Of a stretch of 64,000 nt of DNA, positions 29,430 to 48,964 are shown one piece after another. Every line of letters begins with the position of its first letter. Positions within the stretch are counted from its first letter, which is position 1. Made by a program: the position numbers and the translations under genes. Origin of the DNA: Oceanispirochaeta sp. GTDB lineage: Bacteria; Spirochaetota; Spirochaetia; DSM-2461. Location of the stretch: the NCBI GenBank assembly GCA_963666275.2, contig CAXXOA010000001.1, forward strand, positions 672,001 through 736,000, given 5' to 3'. The notes beneath the pieces are model-generated. The model made no database searches. It was not told the origin of the DNA and was given only the letters and a program-made list of their open reading frames with translations.

Positions 29430-29434
29430 AACAT

Positions 29435-29466
29435 CCCCCTTCGGCTCCGCTCAGGGACCGGAGGGA
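29435..29466. repeat. REP-like hairpin downstream of leuA
   Basis: cccttcggctccgctcaggg motif within a GC-rich stem. Confidence 0.45.
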
Positions 29467-29480
29467 ACAATACAAACCTG

Positions 29481-29580
29481 ACATTCCTTCCTTCACCCTA
29501 CGGGAGAGGGGCAGGGGGTGAGGGAAAAAAACACTCACATTTCTCCCCTCGCCCTCTGGGAGAGGGGCCGGGGATGAGGG
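29481..29580. repeat. Two tandem 44-bp REP-like palindromic units
   Basis: acattccttccttcaccctacgggagaggggcagggggtgaggg (29481-29524) and acatttctcccctcgccctctgggagaggggccggggatgaggg (29537-29580). Confidence 0.75.
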
Positions 29581-29624
29581 TTGGTGAAGGAGAGGTCTTG
29601 TACATTATACGTAAGGAGAACACT

Positions 29625-30686
29625 ATGTCATATAAAGTAGCTGTCCTTCCCGGAGACGGGATCGGACCTGAAGTGATGGATGCAGCACTGGAAGTGCTGG
29701 AAGCGGTAGAAAAAAAATTCGGCTTCAAACTGGAAATTGAAAAAGGTCTGATCGGCGGATGTGCTTATGACGCCACGGGAGATCCCCTGCCAGAAGAGAC
29801 CAGAAAAATCTGTCTGGAATCGGATGCGGTTCTTCTGGGAAGCATCGGCGGCCCCAAATGGGACGGCCTTCCTCCCGAAAAAACTCCCGAGCTGGGAGGT
29901 CTTCTGGCTCTGCGGAAAATGCTCAAACTCTACGCCAACCTGCGCCCCGCGGTAATCTACGAAGAGCTGAAGGGGATGTCACCCCTTTCTGAAAAGGTCC
30001 TTACCGATAAAGTGGACCTGCTGACCGTAAGAGAGCTGGCCCACGGCATCTATTTCGGCGAACCCAAGGAACTGACCGACGAGATCGGTCTGGATACCAT
30101 GGTTTACACAGCCGAACAGGTGGAGAGGATCGCCCGTCAGGGATTCGAAGCCGCCCAGAAACGGGGCAAAAAACTCTGTTCCGTGGACAAGGCCAATGTC
30201 CTCTCCAGTTCCAAACTCTGGAGAAAGGTTGTCAACAAAGTGGCCGCCGACTATCCCGATGTGGAATTGACCCATATGTACGTGGATAACGCAGCCATGC
30301 AGCTCATGCTGAACCCCCTGCAGTTTGACGTTATCGTCACTTCAAACCTCTTCGGAGATATTCTGTCCGATGAATCTGCAGCCATCTGCGGTTCCCTGGG
30401 AATGCTGCCCTCCGCCTCACTGGGCGAAAAAATAAGCCTTTTTGAACCCTCCGGAGGAAGCGCCCCGGATATCGCCGGCAAGGGCATTGCCAACCCCATC
30501 GCCCAGATCATGAGTCTGGCCATGCTGCTGGAGTACTCCTTTGATATGTCCGAACCTGCGGCGGCTATCAAAAAAGCCGTGGACCAGTGTGTTTCCGAAG
30601 GCATCCGGACCGGAGATATCCTGTCTCCCGGTATCAAGCCTGTGAATACCAAAGAGATGACCCAGGCGATTATTGCAAGACTGTAA
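29625..30686 (+). CDS. leuB: 3-isopropylmalate dehydrogenase
   Basis: [63 protein letters not shown]. Confidence 0.97.
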
Positions 30687-30790: not shown

Positions 30791-32733
30791 GGGGCTGTTG
30801 CAAAAGTCTGAAAAGACTTTAGTAGCAGCCTTTTTCTTTTTTGAATGAATCGAACAAAGCATTTAGACTGCAAAAAGGGGCCGCAAAGCGACCCCAGCGT
30901 GCTACAATTTGTTTAACCACAAACAAATAAAAAGGAGCACGTGGTGAATCTTACAGCATTTTCCCAACATAGACAATTATTTCTTGATTTAAACATCTCA
31001 ATCCCCTTTGAAGTAACAGAACATGAAGCAGCACTTATGATTCTGTTGCAAAACCTAGATTACAGCCAGTTTGAACAACCAAAGCAGAAATCAGGACGTC
31101 CACGAGCTGTCAATTCATACACAATGATGCTGATTCTTCTGTATGCCAGGATTCATGGCAGGTTTAGTTCGCGAGATGTAGAACGTTTATGCAAACGAGA
31201 CCTTTTCCTTTTGCAAATCTTAGGTAATCAGAAAGTCCCAGACCATACGACGTTTGACCGTTTTGTTCATACCCATGAGAAAGCCATTGATGAACTATTT
31301 TTTCAGATAGTCGTTCGTCTGGATGCATTGGGAGAGCTTAAGAAAGATGTTGTCTATCAAGATGGCACTAAAATAGAGTCAAAAGCTGGTCGATATAGTT
31401 TTGTCTGGAAGAAAGCGACTAAAAAGAATCTGGAGAAACTCCATAACCATATCCGGAATTTGATTACTGAAGTTAATGATATTTTCTCCTGGCACTTGGA
31501 TCCAGGAGATTATCACACCTCATTGAAAATCCTCATAGAGAAGCTTGTTGCAACAGGAGAGCCTCTTTTCCCGAAGACAACAGGTCGAGGCCACCGAATC
31601 ACGAGAGTTCAGAAATTCTATCGAGATGCTCTTGTTTTCCTGGAGAAACTGGAAAAGTACAATGAATACCTGACTGCCATGAAGGGTAGGAACAGCATGA
31701 GTAAAACTGATCCTGATGCCACGTTTATGCGAATGAAAGAGGACTATATGAGGAACGGGCAGCTGAAACCAGCTTACAACCTTCAAGTACTAGTTGATAG
31801 CGGATATGTTGTCGGAGCTCACGCCAGTGACGATCGCACTGACTATGTAACCATGTGTCCTGCACTGGATCATATGCATGAACATCTGCCCTGGACATAT
31901 TCAAAATACTGTGCGGACAGCGGATACGACTGTCAACAAAACTATGAGGCTCTGGAAAAACAGAATATAGAGGCTTTCATCAAGCCCCAGTTACACGAGC
32001 AATCAAAGAAACGAAAATTCAAAAAGGATATCGGAAAGAAAGAAAACATGATTTATGATCCTTCAACCGATCATTTCATTTGTGCGAAGGGAAAGAAGCT
32101 AAAACTGAAATATGTTCGATCCAGGAAGAATCAATACGGTTATGAAACGACAACACATACATATCGTTGTGAAAGAGGGTGTAAGAGCTGCTCTCTCCGT
32201 TCTTCCTGTATAAAACGAAGTAAGGCAGACTATAAACAGGTACAGATCAACCACAAGCTGTCATCTTATCAAAGAAGAGCTACTGCTTTGATATCCAGTC
32301 CGGAAGGTAAAGAAATCCGTGTTAATAGAAGTATTCAGGCAGAAGGAGTATTTGCTCAGATCAAAGCCAACTGGTCATTCAGGAGATTTTTACGGGCAGG
32401 AAAAACAGGTATCTATACAGAATGGCTATTAGTTTGTCTGGCTATGAATGCTGTTCATTTGGGAAATAGATTATCCCGAGATGAAGTTGGTAATCCCTTC
32501 TATTATCAGATAAAGGATGAATCAGCATAGCTCTAAATCCATTTTTTAATAGATAATGTATAGTCTCAGGTGCATCACATAGGATAAGTGTCAGTAAATT
32601 ACTAAACAAAATGGGAAATTATCAGAATTTTTATTACCAGAACAGAAGTTGTGATCTAAATAGTGATCAAAATAAAAAGAATTTGATTAATGAAAAAAAG
32701 AGGCTGTCGCATTTTTACTTTTGCAACAGCCCC
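30791..32733 (+). mobile_element. IS1182-family insertion sequence
   Basis: Perfect 17-bp terminal inverted repeats ggggctgttgcaaaagt (30791-30807) / acttttgcaacagcccc (32717-32733) flanking a transposase; visibly AT-richer than flanks. Confidence 0.9.
30941..32530 (+). CDS. IS1182-family DDE transposase
   Basis: GRP, SSRDVE, PDHTTF, DGTKIES, SKTDPDATFMRMKED, KPAYNLQ, ADSGY, RSIQAEGVFAQIK. Confidence 0.93.
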   Translation: MVNLTAFSQHRQLFLDLNISIPFEVTEHEAALMILLQNLDYSQFEQPKQKSGRPRAVNSYTMMLILLYARIHGRFSSRDVERLCKRDLFLLQILGNQKVPDHTTFDRFVHTHEKAIDELFFQIVVRLDALGELKKDVVYQDGTKIESKAGRYSFVWKKATKKNLEKLHNHIRNLITEVNDIFSWHLDPGDYHTSLKILIEKLVATGEPLFPKTTGRGHRITRVQKFYRDALVFLEKLEKYNEYLTAMKGRNSMSKTDPDATFMRMKEDYMRNGQLKPAYNLQVLVDSGYVVGAHASDDRTDYVTMCPALDHMHEHLPWTYSKYCADSGYDCQQNYEALEKQNIEAFIKPQLHEQSKKRKFKKDIGKKENMIYDPSTDHFICAKGKKLKLKYVRSRKNQYGYETTTHTYRCERGCKSCSLRSSCIKRSKADYKQVQINHKLSSYQRRATALISSPEGKEIRVNRSIQAEGVFAQIKANWSFRRFLRAGKTGIYTEWLLVCLAMNAVHLGNRLSRDEVGNPFYYQIKDESA

Positions 32734-32739
32734 TTTTTT

Positions 32740-34011
32740 TTACTGATCCAGAGGGATCGGATCCCCTTCGTTTTTGTACATACCTTTAAATTCAACATAA
32801 TCTGCTGTGGAAAAAGTACTATCATTTACAGCGATATTAAAATAACAAGGTTCGTAGGGAAGGTCAGACCAGGCTAGATATTTATTAAATCTTAATTCCA
32901 GAAACCCATCACCCGCACCACCGGTGTGTCCGCTACTATCTTGAGATGCATTGTAATTGACTTGAAAAGTACTTGTTAACCAGTCAGAACCATCATATTC
33001 CGCGTAAAAATTGTGTGAATAGGCTCCATTTTCCTGATCTACGTAAATATCAACGGAAGTTATGGCTCCTATGGAGCCGGAATCATAAAAAGTCAGCAGA
33101 AAGTAGATATAATCATCGTCTTGTTTTATATACACTTTATCAATGTCAGTATTGACTTCTCCAGAGTTATCGTCAGTCAAGACGAAATCCTGATACCAGT
33201 AGCCATATTCTTCCCATGCGGTTATATCAGCCAATGAATTATCATCACATGTGGGGGTTATTCCTCTGTAAAACTGCACAATAGGAGAGTCCATGCTCGG
33301 TTGGGTATCAGAAGAGCTTTTCAGGAGAATATTGAACGTATTTTCATCATTGGAATTATCTATATTCCCATCACCATACAGATTTTCATGATACTGGTAC
33401 CACGAACCAATATGAAAATTCATTCCTGAATCAGATGGTATATAGTTCCAATACGTTGCCTTGGATATCCCAAGCTCAATTGCATTTTCAGATTCATTAA
33501 TCCCTGCAAACCTGATTCCTGCATTATTCAGATCGTAATCTCCCGTGTCATCATAATACCTTGACCAGAAACCAATTGTTCCGTCACTTGTTATTCCGCC
33601 ATCTGGAGAATTGTGGGTTAAATTGAAAAGATTTATCCCATAATTTGATTCATTCAGATCAAAACTAACACTTATACTGGGTTCTGTTAAAGGATTTCCA
33701 TTATAGGATTCAATAAAAAAATAGAGAGTATCATTATCCTGAGCAGCTTTTAACTGGTACAGGTCTCCCCCTGCTATCATGGGGTAGCCGTTCTGAGCTG
33801 TATCTGAAGAGTCATCTGTATACAGAGGCTCTACGTTATCCCAATCCAACAGATCGCCGTCAATAGCAATATCATCCCTGTATTCCAGAGTAATCCCATC
33901 CTGGCCAGTCGGGTCATAGGGGTTGTCGAATACCATATCTTCATACATAAAGCATGCGGATAATAGAAGAGCGGCTCCTGCTGTAATGAAAAAAAGGCCC
34001 GTTTTTCTCAT
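32740..34011 (-). CDS. Acidic, AT-rich lipoprotein with two related beta-rich (DOMON/CBM9-like) units
   Basis: Lipobox LLLSAC; IDGDLLDW...DLYQLKAAQDNDTLYFFI echoed by DIDKVYIKQDDDYIYFLL. Confidence 0.7.
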   Translation of the reverse strand: MRKTGLFFITAGAALLLSACFMYEDMVFDNPYDPTGQDGITLEYRDDIAIDGDLLDWDNVEPLYTDDSSDTAQNGYPMIAGGDLYQLKAAQDNDTLYFFIESYNGNPLTEPSISVSFDLNESNYGINLFNLTHNSPDGGITSDGTIGFWSRYYDDTGDYDLNNAGIRFAGINESENAIELGISKATYWNYIPSDSGMNFHIGSWYQYHENLYGDGNIDNSNDENTFNILLKSSSDTQPSMDSPIVQFYRGITPTCDDNSLADITAWEEYGYWYQDFVLTDDNSGEVNTDIDKVYIKQDDDYIYFLLTFYDSGSIGAITSVDIYVDQENGAYSHNFYAEYDGSDWLTSTFQVNYNASQDSSGHTGGAGDGFLELRFNKYLAWSDLPYEPCYFNIAVNDSTFSTADYVEFKGMYKNEGDPIPLDQ

Positions 34012-34271: not shown

Positions 34272-35153
34272 ATGGACCAACTGGATCAATTAGAAAGCAT
34301 CGGCATAAGAATCCTCCGGGAAGCTTATGCGAATTTTAAAAACCTGTGCATGCTCTGGTCAATCGGCAAGGACAGCACGGTTCTGTTATGGCTTGCCCGT
34401 AAAGCTTTTTACGGGCATGTTCCCTTTCCTCTGGTACACATCGACACACACTACAAGATTCCCGAAATGATCGAGTACAGAGACCGGCTGACCCGGGAAT
34501 GGAAACTGCCCATGGTCTACGGGGAGAACTCCGAAGCCCTGGCGGCCCATCAGACCTTTCCCGAAGGCAATGTGGACAGACTGACCTGCTGCCGCCTCCT
34601 GAAGGCCGAAGCCCTGAAGAATACCCTGAACGGAAGCTGGAAGCGTTACCGGTTCAATCATTCCACCGACCAGTATGAACTGGACAAGGATACGGAAATG
34701 TACACCGGAGTCATCGTGGGTGTACGGGCCGACGAAGAGGGGTCCCGTTCCAAGGAACGCTACTTCAGCCCCCGGGACAAGGAGAATATCTGGGACGTGG
34801 GAGATCAGCCCCCCGAGTTCTGGAACCAGTTTAAAACTGATTTTGCTCCGGGAACCCATGTGAGGATTCATCCTCTCCTGGACTGGACCGAGCTGAATAT
34901 CTGGGAGTACATCGAACGGGAGCAGATTCCCACGGTCTCCCTCTACTACGATCAGGGTTCAGGTCAGCGCTACCGTTCCCTGGGATGCGGTCCCTGTACC
35001 AATCCTGTGGAATCCACCGCAAAAAATGTGGGGGATATCATCACCGAGCTGAAAACAGGCAAGTTCGCCCATATCGCCGAGCGGTCCGGTAGGGCCCAGG
35101 ACAAGGATGACGGAGGCGGACTGGAAACTCTCAGAAGGGACGGGTACATGTGA
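34272..35153 (+). CDS. cysD: Sulfate adenylyltransferase subunit 2
   Basis: [11 protein letters not shown]-loop, [35 protein letters not shown]. Confidence 0.95.
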
Positions 35154-36961
35154 TGAGCAGAGATCAGATGAATATCGTCTTTACAGGACATGTGGACCAT
35201 GGCAAGAGTACGGTGGTCGGACGCCTTCTGGCCGATACGGACTCCCTTCCCGAAGGAAAGCTGGAACAGGTCAAACGGGAGTGTGAGCGCAACTCCAAAC
35301 CCTTCGAATACGCCTTTCTGCTGGATGCCCTGAAAGATGAGCAGTCCCAGGGCATCACCATCGATTCGGCCCGTGTCTTTTTCAATACTGAAAAGCGCGA
35401 CTACATCATCATCGACGCACCGGGTCATATCGAGTTTCTGAAAAATATGATAACCGGGGCAGCCCGGGCGGAAGCGGCTTTTCTTGTGATTGACGCCGAT
35501 GAGGGGGTTCAGGAAAACTCACGGCGCCACGGATACCTCCTCTCCATGCTGGGGATCCGTCAGCTCTGTGTCCTTGTCAATAAAATGGACCTGGTAGGTT
35601 ACAACAGGCAGGTCTATAACAAAATTGTGCGGAAGTACTCCCGGTTTCTGAAAAATATCAATCTCACCGATGTCAACTTCATTCCCGTCAGCGGCCGGGA
35701 AGGGGACAATATCTTCCACAGGGGCGGGAACATGCCCTGGTGGGAGGGCGGTACCGTTCTGGAGCTGCTGGATGCGTTTAAAAAAGAAAAACCTCTGGAC
35801 GATCTTCCCATGAGGATGCCTGTGACGGATATCTACAAGTTCACCAACTATGATGATTCCAGAAGGATCATTGCGGGGACTGTGGAAACCGGTAAATTCA
35901 AGCCGGGAGATGAGTTGATCTTCTATCCCTCCGGAAAGAAAAGTAAAATCAGAACAGTAGAAAGCTTCAATGCGGAAGTTCCTGCGGCTGTGACTGCCGG
36001 AATGGCTACAGGTGTCACTCTGGAGGAGCAGATCTATCTCTCCCGGGGGGCCGTGGCCTGCCGTTCCGACCAGCTGCCTCCCAAAGTGGGGAGCTATCTG
36101 AAAACAAGCCTTTTCTGGCTGGGCAAAGAGCCCCTTGTCAAAGGGAAAGAGTACATGCTGAAAAACGGAACCTCCAAGGTCCGGGCTCAGCTGGCCGAAA
36201 TTACCCGAGTCATCGATGCCTCCTCTCTGGATACGGAAAACACCCAGGAGCAGGTCAACAGGCATGAAGTGGCCGAATGTGTGTTCAGTCTCCAGAAAGC
36301 CATTGCCTTCGATCTGGTGGAGGAACTGCCCCAGACCAGCCGGTTTGTTCTCGTGGACGGGTATGAAATCGCCGGAGGAGGAATTATCCGTGACGTTCAT
36401 GACCACGGGCAGACCGAATACGGCGAGCAGTTGATCCGAAGAACCCTGGAGTGGGAAAACGGTATCGTCACCGAACTGGACAGGATGCAGACCTATGGTC
36501 AGAGACCCGCGCTGATCCTTGTCTCGGGTGAGCTGAACGGCGGAAAGAAAGCCTTTGCGGAAAAGCTTGAAAAGGAGCTCTTTTCCCTGGGAAAAAAGGT
36601 CTACTATCTGGGATACAAGAGCATCAAATTCGGACTGGACTCGGACCTCAGGGACGGCCGGGCCGAACGGCGTCAGCAGGCTGCCCGGGAAGAGCATATC
36701 CGCAGGATTGCCGAGATCGCCCATATCATGCTGGATGCGGGGCTCTTTTTTATAGTTAAAATCGATAATCTGACCTACGAGGAGAGGGATCTTATTCAGC
36801 TCCTCATGGGATCCTCCCGCCTGAAAACTGTCTGGGTGGGAGAAAAAATAGCGACGGACATTCAGCCTGACTGGCATGTAAAACGGCCTCTTGCTGTGGA
36901 CGAACATATGAAAGAAGTTCAGCAGATTCTGGTGGACTGGGAACTGGTGGAGGTACGTTGA
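35150..36961 (+). CDS. cysN: Sulfate adenylyltransferase subunit 1 (GTPase) with degenerate C-terminal APS-kinase-like domain
   Basis: [25 protein letters not shown]-terminal CysC-like region with altered P-loop SGELNGGKK. Confidence 0.92.
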
Positions 36962-38253
36962 TGAAGCAGTTCGAACCGACAAAATATAAAGTGCAGGCCC
37001 TTTGCTGCGGAAAAGTCTTCAGTGATCAGGGGCAGCCCCTGTCCTGTCCCGACTGCTCGGATCCGCATTTTCTGAGGGCTGATTATGAGAAGAAACAGCT
37101 GGACGTCAAAGAGGATGCCCTGGGGCTCTACAGATTCAGTGACTGGCTCCCTGTGGAAAAGACCCTGGAAGGCTCGGGAGCGCCTGTGACCTTCAGGAGC
37201 GAAAAACTGGCCGGGAAACTGGGCCTGAGCAATCTGTGGATCACCTTTAACGGCTGGTGGCCCGAAAAAGGCGCCTTTATGAAAACAGGAACCTTCAAAG
37301 AGTGCGAAGCCTACTCGGTCTGTGCCAGAATTCCAAAAGGAAAAAAGGGCATTCTGGTCGTGGCTTCCGCGGGAAATACAGCCAGGGCATTTGCCCGGGT
37401 GTGCTCTGAAAACAACATTCCCCTGGTCATCACCATCCCCGAAGACAATCTGGGTGCCATGTGGTCGGACAAACCTCTGGCGGACTGTGTCAAAATCATT
37501 GCCGCCTCCTCGGGGTCGGACTACTTCGATGCCATCGATCTGTCGAACAAAATCTGTCAGGGCGAAGATTTCTTTCCCGAAGGGGGCGCGAAAAACATAG
37601 CCCGGAGAGACGGAATGGGAACAACGGTCCTTTCCGCTGTGACAGCCATCGGTGAGATTCCCGACTACTATTTTCAGGCTGTCGGGAGCGGTACAGGCGC
37701 TATCGCCGCCTGGGAAGCCAATCTGAGATTCCTGAAAGACGGAAGGTTCGGCAATAAAAAGATGAAACTGATGGTCTCCCAGAATGCCCCGTTCAAAATT
37801 ATCTATGACTCCTGGAGGGCCGACAGCAGAGCCCTGGTGGCTCTGGATGATGATGAAGCCAGGCAGCAGGTGATTGCCATGAACGCCAAGGTGCTTTCCA
37901 ACCGGAAACCTCCCTATTCTTTGCCGAACGGTCTTTACGATGCCCTCAAGGATACAGGGGGAGATGTCCTTTTGGCGGACAATGAGGAAGCTGCCGAAGC
38001 GGGGCGCCTTTTCAGGGAGACCGAAGGAAATGATATCTCACCGGCTGCCTCGGTTGCCTTGGCATCTTTGATAAAAGCTGTTAACAATGATACGGTGAAG
38101 GCCGGCGAAACGGTGATGCTCAACATAACCGGAGGCGGCATGGGGCGATTTGCCTCTGAAAATACAGTAACAATTGCCAAAGCGGACCTTGTGTTTTCTC
38201 CCCGGGTGGATACACAGGAGCTGATAGAAGCGGTAAGAGATTTATTTAAATAA
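36958..38253 (+). CDS. Cysteate synthase (threonine-synthase-like PLP enzyme; CapA-like)
   Basis: N-terminal [69 protein letters not shown]; embedded in a sulfite-generating operon. Confidence 0.85.
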
Positions 38254-38293
38254 AAAGGTTTATTCAAACAACTCGATTAAGTAGGAGAAAACT

Positions 38294-39580
38294 ATGAGTG
38301 TAGATATTTTTGACAAGTGTAAAACAGACGGTGGATATTTCGGTAAATACAGAGCCGCCGGCGATAGAGACCTGACACGGCCCACCATGGATCCGATCCC
38401 CGGGAAAACCATGCAGTACAAGGGAGAAGAGTACGTGATGTGGTCTGTGAACAACTACATCGGACTGGCTGAAAACCAGGAAGTCAAAGCCGCTGCGGCC
38501 GAGGCTCTTGCGTCTTTCGGAACAAGTGCTCCCATGGGTTCCAGGATGATGAGCGGTAATACCCAGCACCATCAGGACCTTGAAAAACGCCTGGCTGATT
38601 TTTCCCAGAAAGAAGCGGCCTATCTGTTTAACTACGGCTATATGGGTGTTCTCGGTATTGTTTCTTCCCTCTGCGGCCCCAAAGATACGGTTGTGGTGGA
38701 CAAACTGGCTCATGCGTGTATCCTCGATGCCGCCGCCATGGCAAAAGCCGCAGGAGCGACTATCCGCTATTTTAAACACAACAATATGGAAGATCTGGAA
38801 AAGGTTCTTCAGAGTGTGAATAAAGGCAGGGAAGGGGGCGTCATGATCCTCATCGAGGGGGTTTACGGTATGACCGGAGACCTGGCTGACCTCCCCGGAA
38901 TCTGCGAACTGAAAGAAAAATACAACGCCCGCCTTTTCATCGATGATGCCCATGGTATCGGAGTTATGGGAGAAACAGGCCGCGGTACCGGCGACTTCTT
39001 CGGTGTTCAGGACAAGATCGATATCTACTTCGGAACCTTCGCCAAGGCTTTCGCGTCCATCGGCGGTTACTGTGCGGCCGATCAGGATGTGATCGACTGG
39101 ATTGCCTACAATGCCCGGACGCAGGTCTTTGCCAAGAGCCTCCCCATGGTCTATGTGAAAGCTCTGGACAGAACTCTGGACTTTGTGATTGAGGGAAATG
39201 ACAGGCGTCAGAAAATGTGGGACAACTCCCATAAACTGAGAGACGGACTGAGGGAACTGGGGTACTACATCGGCCCCGGTGAATCTCCCATCTGTTCCGT
39301 TTTTACCCCCACCGGGAGCGATGATCCCAACGGCATGGGTGTGAGAATGGTAAAATTCCTGAGAGAGAACAACATCTTTGTCACAGCTGTTGTCTATCCT
39401 GTTATTCCTCCCGGGCTGTGTATGTTCAGAATGATCCCCACCACATCCCATACAGATGCGGAAATCAACAGAACCATTGAGGTATTTGCCAGGATGAAAG
39501 AGGCCCTGGAGCTGGCAGACTCGGTCACCGATGACGATATCAGCAAGATTAAAAGAGTCTACAGGGAAAGAAAATCCTGA
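38294..39580 (+). CDS. Alpha-oxoamine synthase (SPT/AONS family), predicted cysteate-C-fatty acyltransferase (CapB-like)
   Basis: NNYIGLA, GSRMMSG, HACILD, FKHNNMEDL, EGVYGMTGD, DDAHGIG, GTFAKAFASIG (PLP Lys); substrate inferred from adjacency to cysteate synthase. Confidence 0.8.
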   Translation: MSVDIFDKCKTDGGYFGKYRAAGDRDLTRPTMDPIPGKTMQYKGEEYVMWSVNNYIGLAENQEVKAAAAEALASFGTSAPMGSRMMSGNTQHHQDLEKRLADFSQKEAAYLFNYGYMGVLGIVSSLCGPKDTVVVDKLAHACILDAAAMAKAAGATIRYFKHNNMEDLEKVLQSVNKGREGGVMILIEGVYGMTGDLADLPGICELKEKYNARLFIDDAHGIGVMGETGRGTGDFFGVQDKIDIYFGTFAKAFASIGGYCAADQDVIDWIAYNARTQVFAKSLPMVYVKALDRTLDFVIEGNDRRQKMWDNSHKLRDGLRELGYYIGPGESPICSVFTPTGSDDPNGMGVRMVKFLRENNIFVTAVVYPVIPPGLCMFRMIPTTSHTDAEINRTIEVFARMKEALELADSVTDDDISKIKRVYRERKS

Positions 39581-40287
39581 TGCAGAAAGATCTGGTTGCA
39601 CAGTATCAGAAAGAACTGGCCGGCGCTTCCCCCGGGGAGGTCCTGGCCTGGGCTCACAATACCTTTGATCTTTCCGGGATTGCCCTGTCCAACAGTCTGG
39701 GGCTGGAAGATATGGTCCTGACCGACATGCTTATGAAGATTGACCGGAATTTTCCGGTGTTCACCCTGGATACGGGGCGCCTCTTTCAGGAGACCTATGA
39801 TCTCATGGAAGAAGCCCGTACCCGGTGGAAGCTGTCTATGAAGGTTCTGTTTCCCGATCGGGAAGAAGTGGAGAGTCTGATGGTCCGGAAGGGCCCCAAC
39901 TCGTTCTACTACAGTCTGGATAACCGGAAAGAGTGCTGCCGGATCAGAAAGATCGAACCCCTGAAAAAAGAGCTGTCTACTCTGGATGCCTGGATCACCG
40001 GGCTCAGAAGAGAACAGTCTGTCACAAGGAATGAAGTTCAGTGCGTGGAATGGGATGAAGCCTTCGGTCTGATAAAGATCAATCCCCTTGTGGACTGGAG
40101 CGAAAAACAGTGCTGGGATTATGTAAAAGAGCATCATGTCCCGGTTCACAGTCTCCATAAAAAAGGCTTCCCCTCTATAGGCTGTGCTCCCTGTACCCGG
40201 GCTGTGAAACCCGGAGAAGATATCCGGGCCGGCCGCTGGTGGTGGGAAAATCCTGAAAGCAAAGAGTGCGGACTGCACAGAAAATAG
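39580..40287 (+). CDS. cysH: Adenylyl-sulfate (APS) reductase, CysH family with Fe-S cysteines
   Basis: LDTG, ECCRIRK, TGLRREQS, SIGCAPCT, RAGRWWWE, ECGLH. Confidence 0.93.
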   Translation: MQKDLVAQYQKELAGASPGEVLAWAHNTFDLSGIALSNSLGLEDMVLTDMLMKIDRNFPVFTLDTGRLFQETYDLMEEARTRWKLSMKVLFPDREEVESLMVRKGPNSFYYSLDNRKECCRIRKIEPLKKELSTLDAWITGLRREQSVTRNEVQCVEWDEAFGLIKINPLVDWSEKQCWDYVKEHHVPVHSLHKKGFPSIGCAPCTRAVKPGEDIRAGRWWWENPESKECGLHRK

Positions 40288-40338: not shown

Positions 40339-41986
40339 AATGGAAAGGAGGGAGGAGCGACACTCTTCCGCTGTTTACCGCATCCTTGAAGGTTTCATAA
40401 ATATCCTGCTCAGCCAGGATTTCAAGAATTCCTGACTTCTCCAATGTTTCCCTGACATCATGGTTCAGTCCGGAAAGAAGAACTTTGATCCCCCTTTTTC
40501 TGAGAAAGCGCAGAGCATCAAACAGGGCTTTCTGACCGGTCTGATCAATAAAGGACACATGACGCATCCTTATGATAATAGCCCTGTTTGTGATTCCCAC
40601 TTCCTTCACAACCTCCGCATACTGTCTGGCCGAGGCAAAAAACAGAGGGCCGCTGATCTCATAAATACCAAGATCAGAAGGCAGATCGGAATAGTCCTCG
40701 ATCACATCGGTATCCACAATATGATCGATCCTCTTTTCTGCGAACTCGGACATACGGATCATAAACAGAAGGCTGGAGAGCACAATCCCTATCTCTATGG
40801 CAGCAACGAGATCGACGACAACTGTCAGGATAAATGTAACCAGGAGAACAATCCTGTCGTTCCTGTTGCTTCTCAGAATGGCCGCAAAAGACCGCCATTC
40901 ACTCATATTGTAAGCCACTATAATCAGGATTCCCGCCAGACAGGGCATGGGTATGTAGGAGGCAAAGCGGCCGAAGAAAAGCATAATGCACAGAAGGGTA
41001 ACAGAGTGAGTCATTCCGGCAATAGGAGTGCGACCTCCGTTTTTGACATTCGTAGCGGTTCTGGCAATTGCACCGGTTGCGGGGATTCCTCCGAACAGAG
41101 GGGTCACAATATTGGCAATTCCCTGGGCTATCATTTCAGTGTTGGATCGGTGATTTCCGCTGATCATACCGTCTGAAACCGTGGCGGAGAGCAGGGATTC
41201 AATGCCTCCCAGAAGGGCGAGAACCAGTCCCGACTGGAGGTAGAAGGGAATATCCGAATGAACGAATCCCGGTATGGTCAGGGAGATACCCCGGGGAATC
41301 TCTCCGAAAAGAGATCCGATCGTTGACACGGGTATGTCAAGGAGCCTGACAACCAGGCTCACAAGGAGGATGGCTATAAACGACCCGGGGATCCTTTTAA
41401 AGACCCTTCCCGAAAGTAGGACAATCCCGATGGTCACAGCTGTAACCGCCGGAGCGGCAGGGTTCATATCGGAAAAGGCTCCTCCGTAGGCCTGCCATTT
41501 CTGAAAAAACTCTCCCGGGACCTTATCCAGAGGAAGGCCCAGGGCGTCCTTGACCTGGGTGGTGAATATGACCAGAGCTATCCCGCTGGTAAATCCGACA
41601 ATCAGGGAGTGGGGTATGAATTTCAGAAGTTTGCCCAGTTTCAGAACTCCGAAAAATACAAGTATGATTCCGGCCAGCAGGGTGGAATAGAAAAGCCCCT
41701 GGTATCCTTTGAGCTGAACGATTTCAAATATAAGGATTACAAAAGCCCCGGTGGGGCCGCCAATCTGAACCCGGCTTCCTCCGAGCAGGGCAATAAGAAA
41801 TCCGGCCAGGATTCCTGTGATCAGTCCCCTTTCGGGAGAGACTCCCGAAGCAACAGCAAAGGCTATGGAAAGGGGGAGGGCCACAATGCCCACCACAACG
41901 CCGGCCATAAGATCGCTGAGTATCTGCTGTTTCTCAAACCCGGATCGCAGCAGGGTAAAAAATTTGGGTGTAAACGGGTCTTTCAT
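40337..41986 (-). CDS. SulP-family anion (sulfate) permease with STAS domain
   Basis: DLMAGVVVGIVALPLSIAFA, GGSRVQIGGPTGAF, ESLLSA, GAIARTATN, GPLFFAS. Confidence 0.95.
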   Translation of the reverse strand: MKDPFTPKFFTLLRSGFEKQQILSDLMAGVVVGIVALPLSIAFAVASGVSPERGLITGILAGFLIALLGGSRVQIGGPTGAFVILIFEIVQLKGYQGLFYSTLLAGIILVFFGVLKLGKLLKFIPHSLIVGFTSGIALVIFTTQVKDALGLPLDKVPGEFFQKWQAYGGAFSDMNPAAPAVTAVTIGIVLLSGRVFKRIPGSFIAILLVSLVVRLLDIPVSTIGSLFGEIPRGISLTIPGFVHSDIPFYLQSGLVLALLGGIESLLSATVSDGMISGNHRSNTEMIAQGIANIVTPLFGGIPATGAIARTATNVKNGGRTPIAGMTHSVTLLCIMLFFGRFASYIPMPCLAGILIIVAYNMSEWRSFAAILRSNRNDRIVLLVTFILTVVVDLVAAIEIGIVLSSLLFMIRMSEFAEKRIDHIVDTDVIEDYSDLPSDLGIYEISGPLFFASARQYAEVVKEVGITNRAIIIRMRHVSFIDQTGQKALFDALRFLRKRGIKVLLSGLNHDVRETLEKSGILEILAEQDIYETFKDAVNSGRVSLLPPFH

Positions 41987-42271
41987 ATATGCTCCTGATT
42001 ATCTGACAATCTCTTTGTACACCTTCTATTTCTTCCTTTACAATCCCTTCCCCTGATAAAGCAGAGGACGGGAGGATATTTTCTGCGATTTTCTGAGCCC
42101 TCCGGAACCGGCTTCTTCTAGTGTTTTCGTACTATTTTCCCCTTTCCCCCCTTTTCTTATAAGGAAAAACCCGCTATGGTATAGATATTAAAATGACAAA
42201 AATACTTAAAGTGTCAAAATAAAGATTTCCCTCGCACCCAACGGGTCGGGATTTCTGTATCAAAACAGGAG

Positions 42272-45200
42272 ATGGGAATGGATCTACAGACTTTAAGAGA
42301 ATACTTCAAACACATGGTTACCGCCCGTGAAATGGATCTGCTTGAGCAGAGTTACACAGGGCGTGGAGAAGCCTTCTTTCATGTATCCGGAGCAGGGCAT
42401 GAAGGAACCTGTTTTCTGAATGCCGTACTGGGCGAACAGGACTGGCTCCACTGTCACTACAGGGATAAAGCCCTCATGCTGGCGAGAGGCATCGATTCAA
42501 AGATGTTCTTTATGTCCCTTTTCAATAAAGATCAGTCCCATTCCAGGGGACGTCAGATGAATGCCCACATGAGTGATCCTGAGAGAAAGGTCCTCAGCAT
42601 TGTCGGTCCGGTAGGAAACAGCGCACTCCAGGCTGTGGGTGTCGCCGAAGCGGTTAAAGATGAAAAGGACAACCCCGTTGTCCTCTGCGGTCTTGGTGAC
42701 GGAATGAGTCAGCAGGGAGAGGTTCTGGAAGCTGTCGCTCATGCGGTAAGAAAAGAACTTCCTGTACTGTTTTTTATTCAGGATAACAGTTTTGCCATAT
42801 CGACCAAAACAAAAGGGAAAACCTTTTTCTCCCATCCTGAGGGAGATGCGGAAGAATTCTACGGAATCCCCATTGTCCGCATGGACGGACGGTATCCTCA
42901 GAATCTTTATAAACCTATGGAAGAGGTCGTACAGGGAATCCGGGATACCCGGAAACCGGCGATCGTCGTCTTCTCGGTTGACCGTCTTCACAGCCATACC
43001 AATGCGGATGATCACAGGGTCTACAGAACCGAGGAGGAGATTAAAGCTCTTCATAAATCGGGAGATCCCATAGATCAGATGCATGCCTGGCTGCTGGATC
43101 AGGGTGTCGATGAGAAAGAGCTGGAACAGGAGAGAGAGCAGATAGTTGCGGAGCTCAAAGAAAAAGCCCGGGCGGCTCAGATGTCTCCCGAACCGGAACC
43201 CTTTTTCTCTGCGAAAAAAGAAATCCCCCCTCATCTGACAGATCCGAAACAGGAGTACAGAGGAACCCCGGGAAAAGAAGAGCTTACAATGCTGGAAGCG
43301 ATCAGGGAAACCCTCCGTTTTCATCTGGAAAGGAACCCTGCCGTAGAGCTCCTGGGAGAAGATCTGGAAGATCCCAAAGGGGATGTTTTCGGAATTACAA
43401 AAACACTGACACAGGAATTTTCCCGGCGTGTGGAAAACAGCCCTCTTACCGAGTCCACCATTGTGGGGCTTTCTGTAGGAAGGGCTCTGGCTGGAAAACG
43501 TCCTGTCGCATTCCTGCAGTTTGCGGATTTTCTTCCCATTGCGTTTAACCAGCTATGGGCGGAGATGGGCAGTATGTTCTGGAGAACCGACGGCGGCTGG
43601 CAGTGCCCCATGATCGTCATGGTTTCCTGCGGAGGATACAAGCCGGGACTCGGCCCCTTCCATGCCTCCAGTATGGAATCGGTGGCTGCCCATATCCCCG
43701 GAGTCGATGTGGTTATGCCCTCCACCGCAGGGGATGCCGCAGGCCTTCTGAATGCCGCTATGGAGTCGGAAAGGCCTACCATATTCTTCTACCCCAAAGT
43801 CTGTCTGAACGAATCCCTGGGTAAAACCAGTCCCGATGTGTCCAGGCAGCTTGTTCCCCTGGGAGTGGCCAGAAAGCTCAGCGAAGGTGAGCATCTGACC
43901 ATGGTCTCCTACGGGAATACCATCAAGCTCTGCCAGAAAGCGGCGGATGTTCTGAAAAATCAGGGTGTTCACTGTGATATTCTGGACCTGCGATCCATCT
44001 CCCCCTGGGATCAGAAGGCCGTTCTGGAATCTGCTGAAAAAACAGGAAAGCTGATCATTGTCCAGGAGGAGAACGGTACAGCTTCCTTTGCTTCCGAAGT
44101 GGCGGCCTATGTGGCGGAACATGCCGGGACAGCTGTGAAAATCCGCCGTCTTACCAGAGAGGACACATTTGTTCCCTGTAATTTCGATTGTCAGCTGGCT
44201 GTACTGCCTTCCTATCAGAGGATCCTTGAAACAGCTGTTGATCTGTTCGGCGGATCCATCTCCTGGAAGAAGGATGAGTCCGCAGAAGCGGGAATCTTTT
44301 CCGTGGAGATCATCGGAACCAGTCCCGCAGACGAAACTGCCACAGTCATTGAGTGGAAGGTTGAGCCGGGTGACGTTATAGAAGAGGGGGATCTGCTGGC
44401 AGAGATCGAAGCGGATAAAGCCGCAGCGGAAATGAAATCTCCCGTATCCGGTACGGTAGAGGAACTCCTTCTGGATGAGGGAGAAGCTGTTGAGATCGGT
44501 ACTCCCGCACTGAAGGTTAAAACCGGTGAAAATGCGGAAATCTCCCTGAAACCCAAAACAAAAGAAGATCCCGGTGAACCTGTCATTTCAGGGCTTCAGC
44601 TGGAAACTTCATCAACCGACGCGGCACCGGCGGTTTCCGGTGACAGACGCCCCTACCTTGTGGATGTGGCAGGCACCCTGGGAAGCCGGGTTGTAGATAA
44701 CGATGAGATCATGAAGTCCTGTCCCGGATGGGAAGAGGGCGAAATCCTGAAAATGACAGGAATAGAAAAACGCTGCTGGATTGATGAAGGGGAGAATATT
44801 CTTACCCTTTCCCGCACAGCCTCTCAGACTGTGCTCGAAAGAAACGGACTGTCCCTGGACGACCTGAGTCTTATCATCGTTTCAAGCGGCACCCCTGATA
44901 TGATCACCCCCTCCATGGCCACTAGGCTGCAGTATGCGCTGATGCCCGGGGGAAAACGGAAAATGAGCTGTCCCGCTTTTGATATCAACGCCGCCTGTTC
45001 GGGATACCTGTACGGACTGCAGTCCGCCTGGGATTTTCTCAATACCAAGCCCGACGGACTTGTTCTTCTGGTAACAGCGGAAGTCCTTTCTCCTCTGGTG
45101 GATCTGACTGACAAGTCCACTTCCCCCATTTTCGGAGACGGCGCCACAGCCACACTGATAGCCGGTGTCAATCATAAACTGAAAGCACAGGGCAAAGCCC

Positions 45201-45616
45201 GGCTTTTCCGTCCCGTCACAGCTGCTGCCGGAGAACCGGGAGAGATCCTGACCGTTCCCGCCAACCCGGTGGAGCCTATTTTCATGCACGGTCCCAAGGT
45301 TTACCTGGAAGCGGTACAGAGCATGATCGAACTGCTGGGCAGTGCCATGGAACAGGATGGGAAGACTCTGCAGGATGTCTCTCTGATTGTCCCCCATCAG
45401 GCTAACCAGAGGATCATCAATGCAGTACGTCAGAGGCTTAAAATCAGAGAAGAGCAGATCTACAGCGAGATCAGATACAGAGGAAATACATCCTCCTGTA
45501 CGATCCCCCTCTGTCTTGAAACCCTGGTGAATGAGAGAAAATCCGGAGATATTCTGGGTATGACAGCATTCGGCGGCGGATTCACCTCTGCCGGCGGTCT
45601 TCTGGAAATTCTGTAA
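42272..45616 (+). CDS. Fusion: 2-oxoacid dehydrogenase E1alpha + E1beta + lipoyl domain + beta-ketoacyl-ACP synthase III (FabH)
   Basis: TPP motif GDG..IQDN; GEDL..GDVFG, NSPLTES, QFADF, GPFH; lipoyl-Lys IEADKA (K716); FabH triad AAC909SG, PH1042QAN, GN1072TSS. Confidence 0.9.
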   Translation: MGMDLQTLREYFKHMVTAREMDLLEQSYTGRGEAFFHVSGAGHEGTCFLNAVLGEQDWLHCHYRDKALMLARGIDSKMFFMSLFNKDQSHSRGRQMNAHMSDPERKVLSIVGPVGNSALQAVGVAEAVKDEKDNPVVLCGLGDGMSQQGEVLEAVAHAVRKELPVLFFIQDNSFAISTKTKGKTFFSHPEGDAEEFYGIPIVRMDGRYPQNLYKPMEEVVQGIRDTRKPAIVVFSVDRLHSHTNADDHRVYRTEEEIKALHKSGDPIDQMHAWLLDQGVDEKELEQEREQIVAELKEKARAAQMSPEPEPFFSAKKEIPPHLTDPKQEYRGTPGKEELTMLEAIRETLRFHLERNPAVELLGEDLEDPKGDVFGITKTLTQEFSRRVENSPLTESTIVGLSVGRALAGKRPVAFLQFADFLPIAFNQLWAEMGSMFWRTDGGWQCPMIVMVSCGGYKPGLGPFHASSMESVAAHIPGVDVVMPSTAGDAAGLLNAAMESERPTIFFYPKVCLNESLGKTSPDVSRQLVPLGVARKLSEGEHLTMVSYGNTIKLCQKAADVLKNQGVHCDILDLRSISPWDQKAVLESAEKTGKLIIVQEENGTASFASEVAAYVAEHAGTAVKIRRLTREDTFVPCNFDCQLAVLPSYQRILETAVDLFGGSISWKKDESAEAGIFSVEIIGTSPADETATVIEWKVEPGDVIEEGDLLAEIEADKAAAEMKSPVSGTVEELLLDEGEAVEIGTPALKVKTGENAEISLKPKTKEDPGEPVISGLQLETSSTDAAPAVSGDRRPYLVDVAGTLGSRVVDNDEIMKSCPGWEEGEILKMTGIEKRCWIDEGENILTLSRTASQTVLERNGLSLDDLSLIIVSSGTPDMITPSMATRLQYALMPGGKRKMSCPAFDINAACSGYLYGLQSAWDFLNTKPDGLVLLVTAEVLSPLVDLTDKSTSPIFGDGATATLIAGVNHKLKAQGKARLFRPVTAAAGEPGEILTVPANPVEPIFMHGPKVYLEAVQSMIELLGSAMEQDGKTLQDVSLIVPHQANQRIINAVRQRLKIREEQIYSEIRYRGNTSSCTIPLCLETLVNERKSGDILGMTAFGGGFTSAGGLLEIL

Positions 45617-45674
45617 AGCAGGGAAAAGTTACCATGCTATTCCATTAGTGTTATAAAAGCACTGTGTTAATTAG

Positions 45675-45712
45675 CCCCTTCTACTAAAGTTCTGCCCGGT
45701 AGAAGGGGTTTT
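45675..45712 (+). terminator. Terminator-like hairpin between convergent genes
   Basis: ccccttctac / gtagaagggg followed by tttt. Confidence 0.6.
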
Positions 45713-45732
45713 GTAATAAAAGCTTGAAGGGA

Positions 45733-46917
45733 TTAATACTGGCCGATATGGATCTGGACTGGCTGGAAATCCTGCAGATCCTCATCTATCATAAAGAATT
45801 TTTTGATCTCAACAGGTACGTTCTGGTTAATGGTTGTGTAATTTCCCAATTCTCCATAGTCGTTTTTTCCAAATCCCCAGAGAGTTCCGTCCTCTTTCAG
45901 AACAATGGTATGGTCTCCTCCGTTATGGCTGATAGCGGAAACGTCATTCATGACTTCTTTGAAGACGGCAGCATTGGTATTTGTACCGTCTCCAAGCTGC
46001 CCCTGATCATTGCGTCCCGTCGTCCATAAGGTTCCATCGATTTTGAGTGCTACGGTGTGAAAACGACCTGTGGAAATATCGACAACATCGGAGAGAACCT
46101 GTTCAAAAGCTAGTCTGTCAGCGGTATCACCCGTTCCTAACTGGCCGTAGGTATTGCCACCCGAGGCCCAGAGGGTGCCGTTTGTTTTCAGGACCATAGA
46201 ATGGGCAGTCCCTGCAGAAACACTTAAGACTCCCGTTATTATTTGAGTAAAATCGGCTATATCAGATGTATCGCCGCTTCCAAGCTGTCCCCGGGAGTTT
46301 CCGCCGCTAACCAGTAGGTCTCCGGAAGTGTCCACCACCAGAGAAAAGTTATTTCCCGTATCCATAGTTTTTACGCTGCTGAGCACTTTTTCCGGTGTTG
46401 CCATACCAGTGGTTGAAGTTGTACTGTTACCAAATTGTCCATCTTTATTCAAACCTGCTGCCCAGAGGGTCCCGTCGTTTTTTAACATAAGAGAAAAATC
46501 AGTTCCTGCAGAGGCTTTTTTGGCATTGTCCATAATTTTAACAGGTGAGGCAACTTTAGCAGAAGCACTTCCTGTTCCCAGTTCGCCTTCCGTGTTGTCT
46601 CCCATCGCCCATAGAGTCTTGTCTGACTTAAGAAGGAAACTGTGATTCTCTCCTGCAAAAATACCAATTACATCCTCCAGTATCTTCTGGTAGTAGTTGT
46701 ATTGGTCGTTTGATAATTTACCAAGCTGACCTTTGTCATTTTTTCCTGTACCGTAAAGGCTACCGTTGCTGTTGAGGAAAAATGAGTGATCCCCTCCGGC
46801 GGACAAAGTTGTATCAATTGATACCTTGTCTCTGTTACTGCTGCTGAACATGCCGTTGTCGCATCCAGACAGTAGCAGTATTAAAATTGTGAATCCTGTG
46901 AAAATAGTTTTTTTCAT
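45733..46917 (-). CDS. RCC1/BLIP-II beta-propeller repeat lipoprotein
   Basis: Lipobox LLLSGC; about 7 repeats of G..HS..LK.DGTLW..G.N..GQLG. Confidence 0.9.
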   Translation of the reverse strand: MKKTIFTGFTILILLLSGCDNGMFSSSNRDKVSIDTTLSAGGDHSFFLNSNGSLYGTGKNDKGQLGKLSNDQYNYYQKILEDVIGIFAGENHSFLLKSDKTLWAMGDNTEGELGTGSASAKVASPVKIMDNAKKASAGTDFSLMLKNDGTLWAAGLNKDGQFGNSTTSTTGMATPEKVLSSVKTMDTGNNFSLVVDTSGDLLVSGGNSRGQLGSGDTSDIADFTQIITGVLSVSAGTAHSMVLKTNGTLWASGGNTYGQLGTGDTADRLAFEQVLSDVVDISTGRFHTVALKIDGTLWTTGRNDQGQLGDGTNTNAAVFKEVMNDVSAISHNGGDHTIVLKEDGTLWGFGKNDYGELGNYTTINQNVPVEIKKFFMIDEDLQDFQPVQIHIGQY

Positions 46918-47911: not shown

Positions 47912-48964
47912 CTAGTCTCTGACCCGGCCCAGGCCCAGGAGTTTCAGCAACCACTTGGCCAGAGGTTTGGCGGGGTTCCTTTTTTTCAGATTCAGATACC
48001 AGTTCCATTTTTTCACGATGGGGATTTTATGGGTTTCCACGAATTCGATCAGCGTTCCATCCGGATCTTCACAGTAGGAAAACCGGCCAGCCGCCTCTCC
48101 CATGTCAAAGGAGTTTCCCGTATCCACGGTAAAAGGAAAGCCTTTTTCCCTGAGAGTTTCTCCCAGTTCATCCATGCCGTTCACATCGAAGCAGAGATGG
48201 ATAAAACCGGCATCTCCCCAGTAACGGTCTTTGAAGATTTTTTCAGGTTTCCGTTCCAGGCACTGGATCAGCTCTATGCTTCCGTAGCCGAACATCTCCG
48301 CAAACGCTCCCTGTCTCGGTTCCATATGGGTCAGCAGAACTCTTCTGAATGAACCGTCTCCTCCGGGCAGGGCGGAAAGGTCTTCAAAACTTCCGGTCTG
48401 ATCATAAGCTGTGGTGGAGTATCCCAGAATATCACGGTACAGGGGGAGGGCTTTGTCTATATCGCTGACGCCGATCACAGCTCCGCAGGGGCCTGCAGTC
48501 AGACCGGGTCTGCTGAAGAAATCCTCAGCCGTCAGAATCTCAAAAATATTACCGTAAGGATCCCTGGCATAAAAGTGGTCTCTTCCGACAGGATCCTTTT
48601 CCACTTTTCCCAGGATATCCACGCCCTGATCTCTGTAATGATCAAAAACGGCTTTTACATCAGGAGCTTTTATTTTGCCTATCTGTATTCCCAGGTCACC
48701 TATCTTCAATGGGGCGTCGGGGAATACTGTCTCCCTGGTGGTGTACTGCCAGATTTCAAATCCGCTGCCTCCGCCAAGGTTCAGAGCCAGAACCGCATCC
48801 CGTCCCTGGACTTTGTCTCCTGTGTAGCGGGTCATGAAGGGGGCATCTGCCGCTTCCTGAAATACAGGGACATCCATGCCGAAATATTTTCTGTACCAGG
48901 CCCAGGCTTTGTTCCTGTCGGCTACGCCTATACCTAACTGCTGAATTCCGCTGATGATTGTCAT
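47912..48964 (-). CDS. Two-domain VOC (glyoxalase/epimerase-like) protein
   Basis: QQLGIGVAD, FEIWQY, RDPYGNIFE, IELIQ, FIHLCFDV, EDPDGTLIEFVE. Confidence 0.88.
   Translation of the reverse strand: MTIISGIQQLGIGVADRNKAWAWYRKYFGMDVPVFQEAADAPFMTRYTGDKVQGRDAVLALNLGGGSGFEIWQYTTRETVFPDAPLKIGDLGIQIGKIKAPDVKAVFDHYRDQGVDILGKVEKDPVGRDHFYARDPYGNIFEILTAEDFFSRPGLTAGPCGAVIGVSDIDKALPLYRDILGYSTTAYDQTGSFEDLSALPGGDGSFRRVLLTHMEPRQGAFAEMFGYGSIELIQCLERKPEKIFKDRYWGDAGFIHLCFDVNGMDELGETLREKGFPFTVDTGNSFDMGEAAGRFSYCEDPDGTLIEFVETHKIPIVKKWNWYLNLKKRNPAKPLAKWLLKLLGLGRVRD

Follow-up and report, generated by a model that had tools for sequence, protein, structure and literature searches.

A gene for a four-part fusion protein was found in the window analysed here, a stretch of 64,000 nucleotides from Oceanispirochaeta sp. 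(positions 672,001 to 736,000 of contig CAXXOA010000001.1, assembly GCA_963666275.2). The gene lies at 42272..45616 on the plus strand and joins both halves of a thiamine diphosphate (ThDP)-dependent E1 component (E1alpha and E1beta), a lipoyl domain and a FabH-type 3-oxoacyl-acyl carrier protein (ACP) synthase III (KAS III) in 1114 amino acids (aa). From comparison with related sequences we consider, with moderate confidence, that the fusion is a coenzyme A (CoA)-free starter module for type II fatty-acid synthesis, fed by a 2-oxoacid, probably a branched one, and that the acyl group is handed directly from the lipoyl arm to the active-site cysteine C909. Such a CoA-free transfer had been proposed in an earlier sequence-only reading of the window. 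Its comparative side has gained support, as the CoA clamp of the FabH part is lost, the catalytic triad and the ACP face are kept and, in a second protein family, FabH occupies the position of an E2 core, while the transfer itself is still a prediction.

In the proposed cycle the E1 half would decarboxylate a branched 2-oxoacid such as 2-oxoisocaproate in a ThDP-dependent reaction and reductively acylate the lipoyl group on K716. The acyl group would then move from the lipoyl arm directly to C909 by transthioesterification. Its condensation with malonyl-ACP in the KAS III half would yield the first 3-oxoacyl-ACP, and a free E3 from another locus would return the reduced, dihydrolipoyl form of the arm to the oxidised state. 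Straight chains would still be initiated from acetyl-CoA by the ordinary FabH, encoded in the fabH-fabD-fabG operon. Because E1 (alpha2beta2) and FabH are both two-fold symmetric, the fusion, as a dimer, could assemble both sets of active sites. Lipoylation, direct transfer, condensation, substrate and product are all predicted from sequence comparison.

Architecture and occurrence of the fusion

The open reading frame (ORF) has zero internal stops, and a Pfam domain search agreed with the sequence-only reading that E1, lipoyl and KAS III parts lie in one uninterrupted frame. Matches above the cut-off were obtained for E1_dh (residues 14-310), Transket_pyr (337-509) and Transketolase_C (531-639) in the E1 half, and for Biotin_lipoyl (690-746), ACP_syn_III (903-966) and ACP_syn_III_C (1027-1112) in the rest of the protein. 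K716, C909, H1042 and N1072 were located where that reading had placed them. The absence of an E2 catalytic domain, also claimed there, was borne out by the Pfam scan of the protein, which gave no match to PF00198 (E2 core) and none to PF02817 (E1/E3-binding domain).

The ThDP-binding E1alpha domain was placed by Pfam and alignment at 42311..43201 (+), with its GDG..N motif at residues 142-172. The same combination placed E1beta, with its pyrimidine-binding and C-terminal domains and the conserved E394, QFADF and H464, at 43280..44236 (+). A short linker of 15-19 aa leads to the lipoyl domain at 44315..44518 (+), which was delimited by Pfam and solved relatives. Its closest solved structures are E2 lipoyl domains, and K716 (codon 44417-44419) lies in a DKA motif within EADKA. 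According to the alignment, a conserved segment, KPxTxExPGxPxI, follows at 44549..44593 (+) and passes into a variable linker. The KAS III domain of FabH fold, placed by Pfam and alignment, occupies 44660..45613 (+), with the codons of C909 at 44996-44998, of H1042 at 45395-45397 and of N1072 at 45485-45487.

Conservation was assessed in 150 fused copies, made up of the query together with 118 homologues longer than 1090 aa and 31 loci; the set was not dereplicated. The ThDP-E1 residues G142, G144, N172, R238, H242, E394 and H464 were invariant in 150/150, and D715-K716-A717 was kept in the same number. A promoter scan gave only chance level (3 found, 2.8 expected), and the single-sequence fold prediction of the protein was unusable, with a mean pLDDT of 39.

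The fusion was present in one open frame in 49 of the 201 genomes of the class Spirochaetia that were screened. Two further carriers were G019, in which it is split over two contigs, and G056, in which stops interrupt it and it runs through three frames (G056:C1:813831-817290); the latter genome has 7 KAS III-family matches. These 51 carrier genomes represent 31 genera. All 5 genomes of the query's own genus had the fusion, compared with 0/9 other genomes of the family. Nearly all of the best 120 of 1365 homologues were full-length fusions, and the nearest named relative was a 90% identical protein in an Oceanispirochaeta metagenome-assembled genome. By source name, relatives also came from Accumulibacter and Anthocerotibacter and, as partial proteins, from Verrucomicrobia, Planctomycetota, Alphaproteobacteria, Burkholderiales and KSB3. 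None of the plasmid records covered 80% of the fusion protein. The labels that these proteins carry at present are only 'transketolase', '2-oxoisovalerate dehydrogenase' or 'FabH'.

An assembly artefact, a possibility raised in the earlier reading, was ruled out by the single-frame occurrence in 49 genomes of the class and by the full-length homologues. A public contig also covers 41800-46200 without differences, but it may be the source assembly, its three runs representing one sample, and conservation across genomes is therefore the stronger check. Natural split forms were rejected as well: the shorter matches that were inspected begin partway through a domain and are apparently fragments. 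At the planctomycete locus L019 the fusion is broken into several frames. In one relative of 1942 aa (P0286) the fusion part is followed by ketoreductase and ACP domains, a layout that resembles a polyketide assembly line on a small scale.

The KAS III domain and a second lipoyl-KAS III family

The positions of the fused KAS III domains are given in E. coli FabH numbering. The comparison set consisted of 21 stand-alone spirochaete FabHs. Distant fusions were represented by 37 full-length proteins clustered at 50% identity and were contrasted with 47 short matches of 305-345 aa. In FabH, the adenine of CoA is described as stacked between Trp32 and Arg151 (PMC4606726). The equivalents in the query fusion are E824 and K948, and Trp32 and Arg151 were each found in 0/150 fused copies, whereas both were present in 21/21 stand-alone spirochaete FabHs. 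Among 120 more distant partial copies the counts were 0/116 for Trp32 and 0/120 for Arg151. The 37 distant full-length representatives had Trp32 in 2 cases and Arg151 in 1, compared with 42 and 42 of the 47 short matches. In the fused copies the Trp32 position holds Asp or Glu, the Arg151 position is not Arg, and the Asn210 position is mostly Pro.

The Cys-His-Asn triad was intact in 150/150 fused copies, and the distant representatives kept H1042 in 36/37 and N1072 in 37/37 cases. The ACP face of the query consists of R1047/A1051/R1053/R1055. Among the 150 fused copies the Arg249 position was R or K in 150, residue 253 was Ala in 147 and residue 257 was R or K in 150; the residues equivalent to Arg249/253/257 presumably serve ACP docking here too. 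Condensation with malonyl-ACP looks selected, because the triad and the ACP-face residues (R1047, A1051) are kept. The contacts specific to CoA were lost while catalysis and ACP docking were retained, and this is the pattern that direct transfer from the lipoyl arm would predict.

The fusion protein scored below the cut-offs of the curated fabH models NF006829 and TIGR00747 (234 instead of 249 and 198 instead of 292 bits), while the stand-alone FabH of the same genome passed both. In a tree calculated by a quick method with weak deep branches, a weak branch separated 36 of 39 fused domains from the stand-alone FabHs; no fused domain grouped with the spirochaete housekeeping FabHs. The equivalent of E. 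coli Phe87 was Thr or Ser in 150/150 fused copies but Phe or Tyr in 19/21 stand-alone spirochaete FabHs; we take this position, which varies widely among other FabHs, to limit primer size.

A sensitive search returned a second architecture, lipoyl domain, E3-binding domain and KAS III, in proteins P0327 and P0349. The family is large in Opitutaceae (P0349, P0327, P0419-P0537; loci L075-L105), and judged by its domain layout such a protein is an E2 with FabH in place of the core. The Trp32 position held Glu in 120/120 members and Arg151 was found in 0/120, with triad and ACP face intact. These proteins formed a branch of their own in the quick tree (SH-aLRT 99), and the sequence comparison suggests two separate origins for the joining of lipoyl domain and KAS III. 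In 7 of 31 Opitutaceae loci (L081, L083, L088, L089, L092, L095, L099) the lipoyl part is read in a different frame from KAS III, which reflects either natural splits or sequence errors.

The E1 pocket and the contribution of the genome

Among solved structures, E1alpha matched branched-chain enzymes best (E 1e-32), and pyruvate dehydrogenase followed at 8e-19; the E1 entries 1dtw and 1um9 scored best. F36, H62-Y63-R64, GRQMxxH at 93-99, R238 and H242 align with F85, Y113-R114, GRQMPVH, R287 and H291 of human branched-chain E1alpha. F36, Y63-R64, M96 and H99, which we take to be substrate-pocket residues, were kept in 149-150 of the 150 close copies, and the fusion is the only E1 of the genome with the GRQMxxH motif. 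Motifs and best matches favour an E1 pocket that is probably of the branched-chain type. A branched substrate is further supported by the Streptomyces E1s beside a loading module and by the position of the gene downstream of leuA-leuB in this genus, both described below. The major fatty acids of Oceanispirochaeta M1 and M2 are given as iso-C13:0, C14:0, iso-C15:0 and C16:0 (PMC11129491), and the profile reported there would fit two starters if M1 and M2 carry the gene. A protein assigned to 'unclassified Oceanispirochaeta' belongs to the fusion family.

The source genome contains two E2 genes and three E3 genes (over the TIGR01350 cut-off), all of them outside the window and unlinked to the fusion. 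One E2 belongs to an aceE-aceF-lpd operon, the other to an operon of E2, E3 and a fused 819-aa E1 with a GGSMH motif. The earlier statement that no E2 or E3 gene accompanies the fusion therefore holds for the window but not for the genome. As an argument for a bypass of CoA it is weak, since both components are encoded in 51/51 carriers, and genome-wide absence of E2 was discarded as an argument for the same reason. A stand-alone lipoyl-E3 gene for 577 aa (G000:C2:1186719-1188452; L003), without a nearby E1 or E2 gene, is a candidate partner for re-oxidising the arm of the fusion.

The genome also has a normal fabH-fabD-fabG operon, lipA, four ligase-family matches and one ACP match that is unlinked to the fusion. 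The lipA gene was detected in 49/51 carriers and in 80/150 non-carriers, a distribution among kin that are not independent, which is consistent with a lipoylated arm and no test of it. The description of the fusion as a one-protein primer module is correct for the domains, which lie on a single chain, but E3, the lipoylation enzymes, FabD and ACP would be needed in trans. A second KAS III-family match was found in 48/51 carriers. In G022, G011 and G047 (93-96% complete) the fused domain was the only KAS III-family match found, so that FabH-type initiation may depend entirely on the fusion in these genomes.

Alternative readings, related systems and neighbouring genes

Several observations weigh against a CoA-free starter module for branched chains. 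W820, adjacent to the lost Trp32, was kept in 149/150 close and 10/37 distant copies and might substitute for Trp32. Arg36 was kept in 121/150 fused copies, two full fusions retain Trp32, and at the clamp positions the lipoyl-KAS III outliers P0327 and P0345 still have Tyr and Arg. Every one of the 51 carriers encodes at least one E2 core, and judged by gene content acyl-CoA may be released in trans. In 31 metagenome loci of the Opitutaceae family, several of them short contigs and one weak locus excluded, a search of up to 7 kb around the lipoyl-KAS III gene revealed no E1 gene. Distant copies show more variation in the substrate pocket, with M96 in 28/37 and H99 in 22/37. A VorB-type 2-oxoisovalerate:ferredoxin oxidoreductase scored above the cut-off in the source genome and, together with the normal FabH, could be a source of iso fatty acids without the fusion. 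Linkage to leuB was seen in only 4 of the 43 carriers having leuB, all of one genus.

Some of these points would agree with a fusion of convenience, in which the lipoyl arm delivers its acyl group to CoA through an E2 from another locus and the fused FabH takes up the acyl-CoA. The E2 cores of all carriers and the retention of Arg36 and the nearby W820 in close copies speak for this route. It is nevertheless unlikely, although it survives best among the alternatives. Both clamp residues are gone in nearly all copies, the two E2 genes of the genome sit in their own E1-E2-E3 operons, and the E2-shaped Opitutaceae family replaces the core itself. Moreover, a comparison of 32 loci, of which 30 had just 1.5-kb flanks, showed no E2 gene recurring next to the fusion.

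The same CoA-free chemistry could also start from pyruvate or 2-oxobutyrate, and the resulting acetyl or propionyl primers would lead to straight chains. The top E1 models of NCBIfam were pyruvate dehydrogenases, every one of them below its cut-off, and no curated model passed. Pocket residues vary in distant copies, and relatives occur in Accumulibacter and Anthocerotibacter, which are not known as makers of branched fatty acids. This substrate comes next in order and is likewise improbable in view of the branched-chain-type motifs and best structural matches, the Thr or Ser at the Phe87 position of all 150 fused copies, and the normal FabH and AceEF pyruvate dehydrogenase, which already cover acetyl priming.

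A precedent for loading through a lipoyl domain is described for QncN/QncL/QncM (quinocarcin) and SclQ1-4 (scleric acid), where a ThDP enzyme loads the lipoyl domain and the acyl unit reaches an assembly-line carrier protein (PMC6335953). These systems have an E2-type acyltransferase, a ketose substrate and a place in secondary metabolism, whereas the fusion has KAS III instead of the acyltransferase and its gene stands alone. The features of QncN/L/M were not found: the fusion has no acyltransferase domain, the sole ACP match of the genome is unlinked and there is no conserved cluster. The precedent would suit a KAS III domain that acts as a transacylase and loads holo-ACP from the lipoyl arm, in the way that QncL loads QncM, with another ketosynthase extending the chain, and FabH has a transacylase side activity. 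We regard this role as quite improbable, considering that H1042 and N1072 are kept in 150/150 copies and in 36 and 37 of the 37 distant ones; the His and Asn of KAS III are needed for malonyl decarboxylation.

Upstream of the fusion and on the same strand, leuA (yeast type) and leuB were found at 27738-30686 (+). Between leuB and cysD lie a 529-aa ORF at 30941-32530 (+), transposase-like by eye, and a low-GC ORF of 423 aa without a Pfam match at 32740-34011 (-). The genes for cysD, cysNC, cysteate synthase (over the TIGR03844 cut-off), a BioF/serine palmitoyltransferase-like enzyme and cysH form one run at 34272-40287 (+), which by its gene content is a capnine-type sulfonolipid operon in a spirochaete. 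Within the genus the genes follow the order leuA-leuB-(sulfonolipid-type operon)-fusion; leuB directly adjoins the fusion in G055. An operon of this type lies just upstream of the fusion in G187, G031, L017 and L018 as well. The same four share a gene with two domains of glyoxalase fold downstream of the fusion, at 47912-48964 (-) in the window. Neither conserved neighbours nor a biosynthetic cluster across families was found in 32 loci, 30 of them with flanks of just 1.5 kb. The fusion could instead serve one special lipid as its own starter, for example the adjacent capnine-type sulfonolipid, and not bulk fatty acids. Such a role would agree with this run of cysD, cysNC, cysteate synthase, aminoacyl C-acyltransferase and cysH genes just upstream, with the iso-C15 chain that capnine carries and with the continuation of P0286 into ketoreductase and ACP domains, but it is very improbable: cysteate synthase is present in only 11/51 carriers, just 3 of them, from a single genus, have it close to the fusion, and neighbours are not conserved across families.

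A CoA-free starter module, the reading preferred here, differs from the known route to branched chains. In Bacillus and Staphylococcus a branched-chain 2-oxoacid dehydrogenase complex feeds a downstream FabH. The fusion shares the E1alpha and E1beta folds, the pocket motifs and the lipoyl arm with that complex, but it is one polypeptide without an E2 core, a subunit-binding domain or a linked E3, and its FabH has no CoA adenine clamp. With FabH/KAS III (E. coli 1hn9, Aquifex 2ebd, S. aureus 1zow) it has the triad, the HQANxR and GNTS motifs and the basic ACP face in common. Unlike canonical FabH it lacks the clamp, stays below the fabH cut-offs and branches apart from the spirochaete housekeeping FabHs. 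By these features the fusion would belong neither to the 2-oxoacid dehydrogenase complexes (no E2 core) nor to canonical FabH (no clamp, below cut-offs).

The closest E1s on plasmids are fused E1s of Streptomyces (NZ_CP109590, NZ_CP061282) with 37% identity, which have the GEAxFHxS and HYRD motifs and a lipoyl domain directly after. Unlike in the fusion, a degenerate E2 core and an ACP then precede a type I ketosynthase (KS). At L070:14968-19993 and L071:11944-16977 the fused E1 of the Streptomyces plasmid is followed by a polyketide synthase/nonribosomal peptide synthetase starting with lipoyl-E2 core-ACP-KS. From their gene content we take these clusters to be of the streptogramin type, and they suggest CoA-free starter loading in such pathways. 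The starter of group A streptogramins is stated to be isobutyryl (PMC6963833).

No description of the fusion was found by title or abstract in the open-licence literature, subscription papers and supplements being beyond that scope. The fusion is a real and widespread enzyme that is apparently unstudied, a novel arrangement of known parts. Fatty-acid synthesis is classically initiated from acyl-CoA by FabH-type enzymes or from decarboxylated malonyl-ACP. If the proposed transfer is correct, a lipoyl-fed KAS III would be a further route of initiation and a new acyl-transfer partnership. The chances seem about even that KAS III with a lipoyl-thioester donor was assembled at least twice, in the fusion and in Opitutaceae, and that roughly a quarter of Spirochaetia, along with members of several other phyla, obtain most of their branched membrane lipids through it. 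In an engineered host the fusion would offer a one-gene module for branched fatty acids. The prediction of iso and anteiso lipids from genomes would also change, given the uninformative labels of these proteins at present. For the organisms themselves, it would mean that branched 2-oxoacids can be committed to lipid without mixing with the fermentative acyl-CoA pool.

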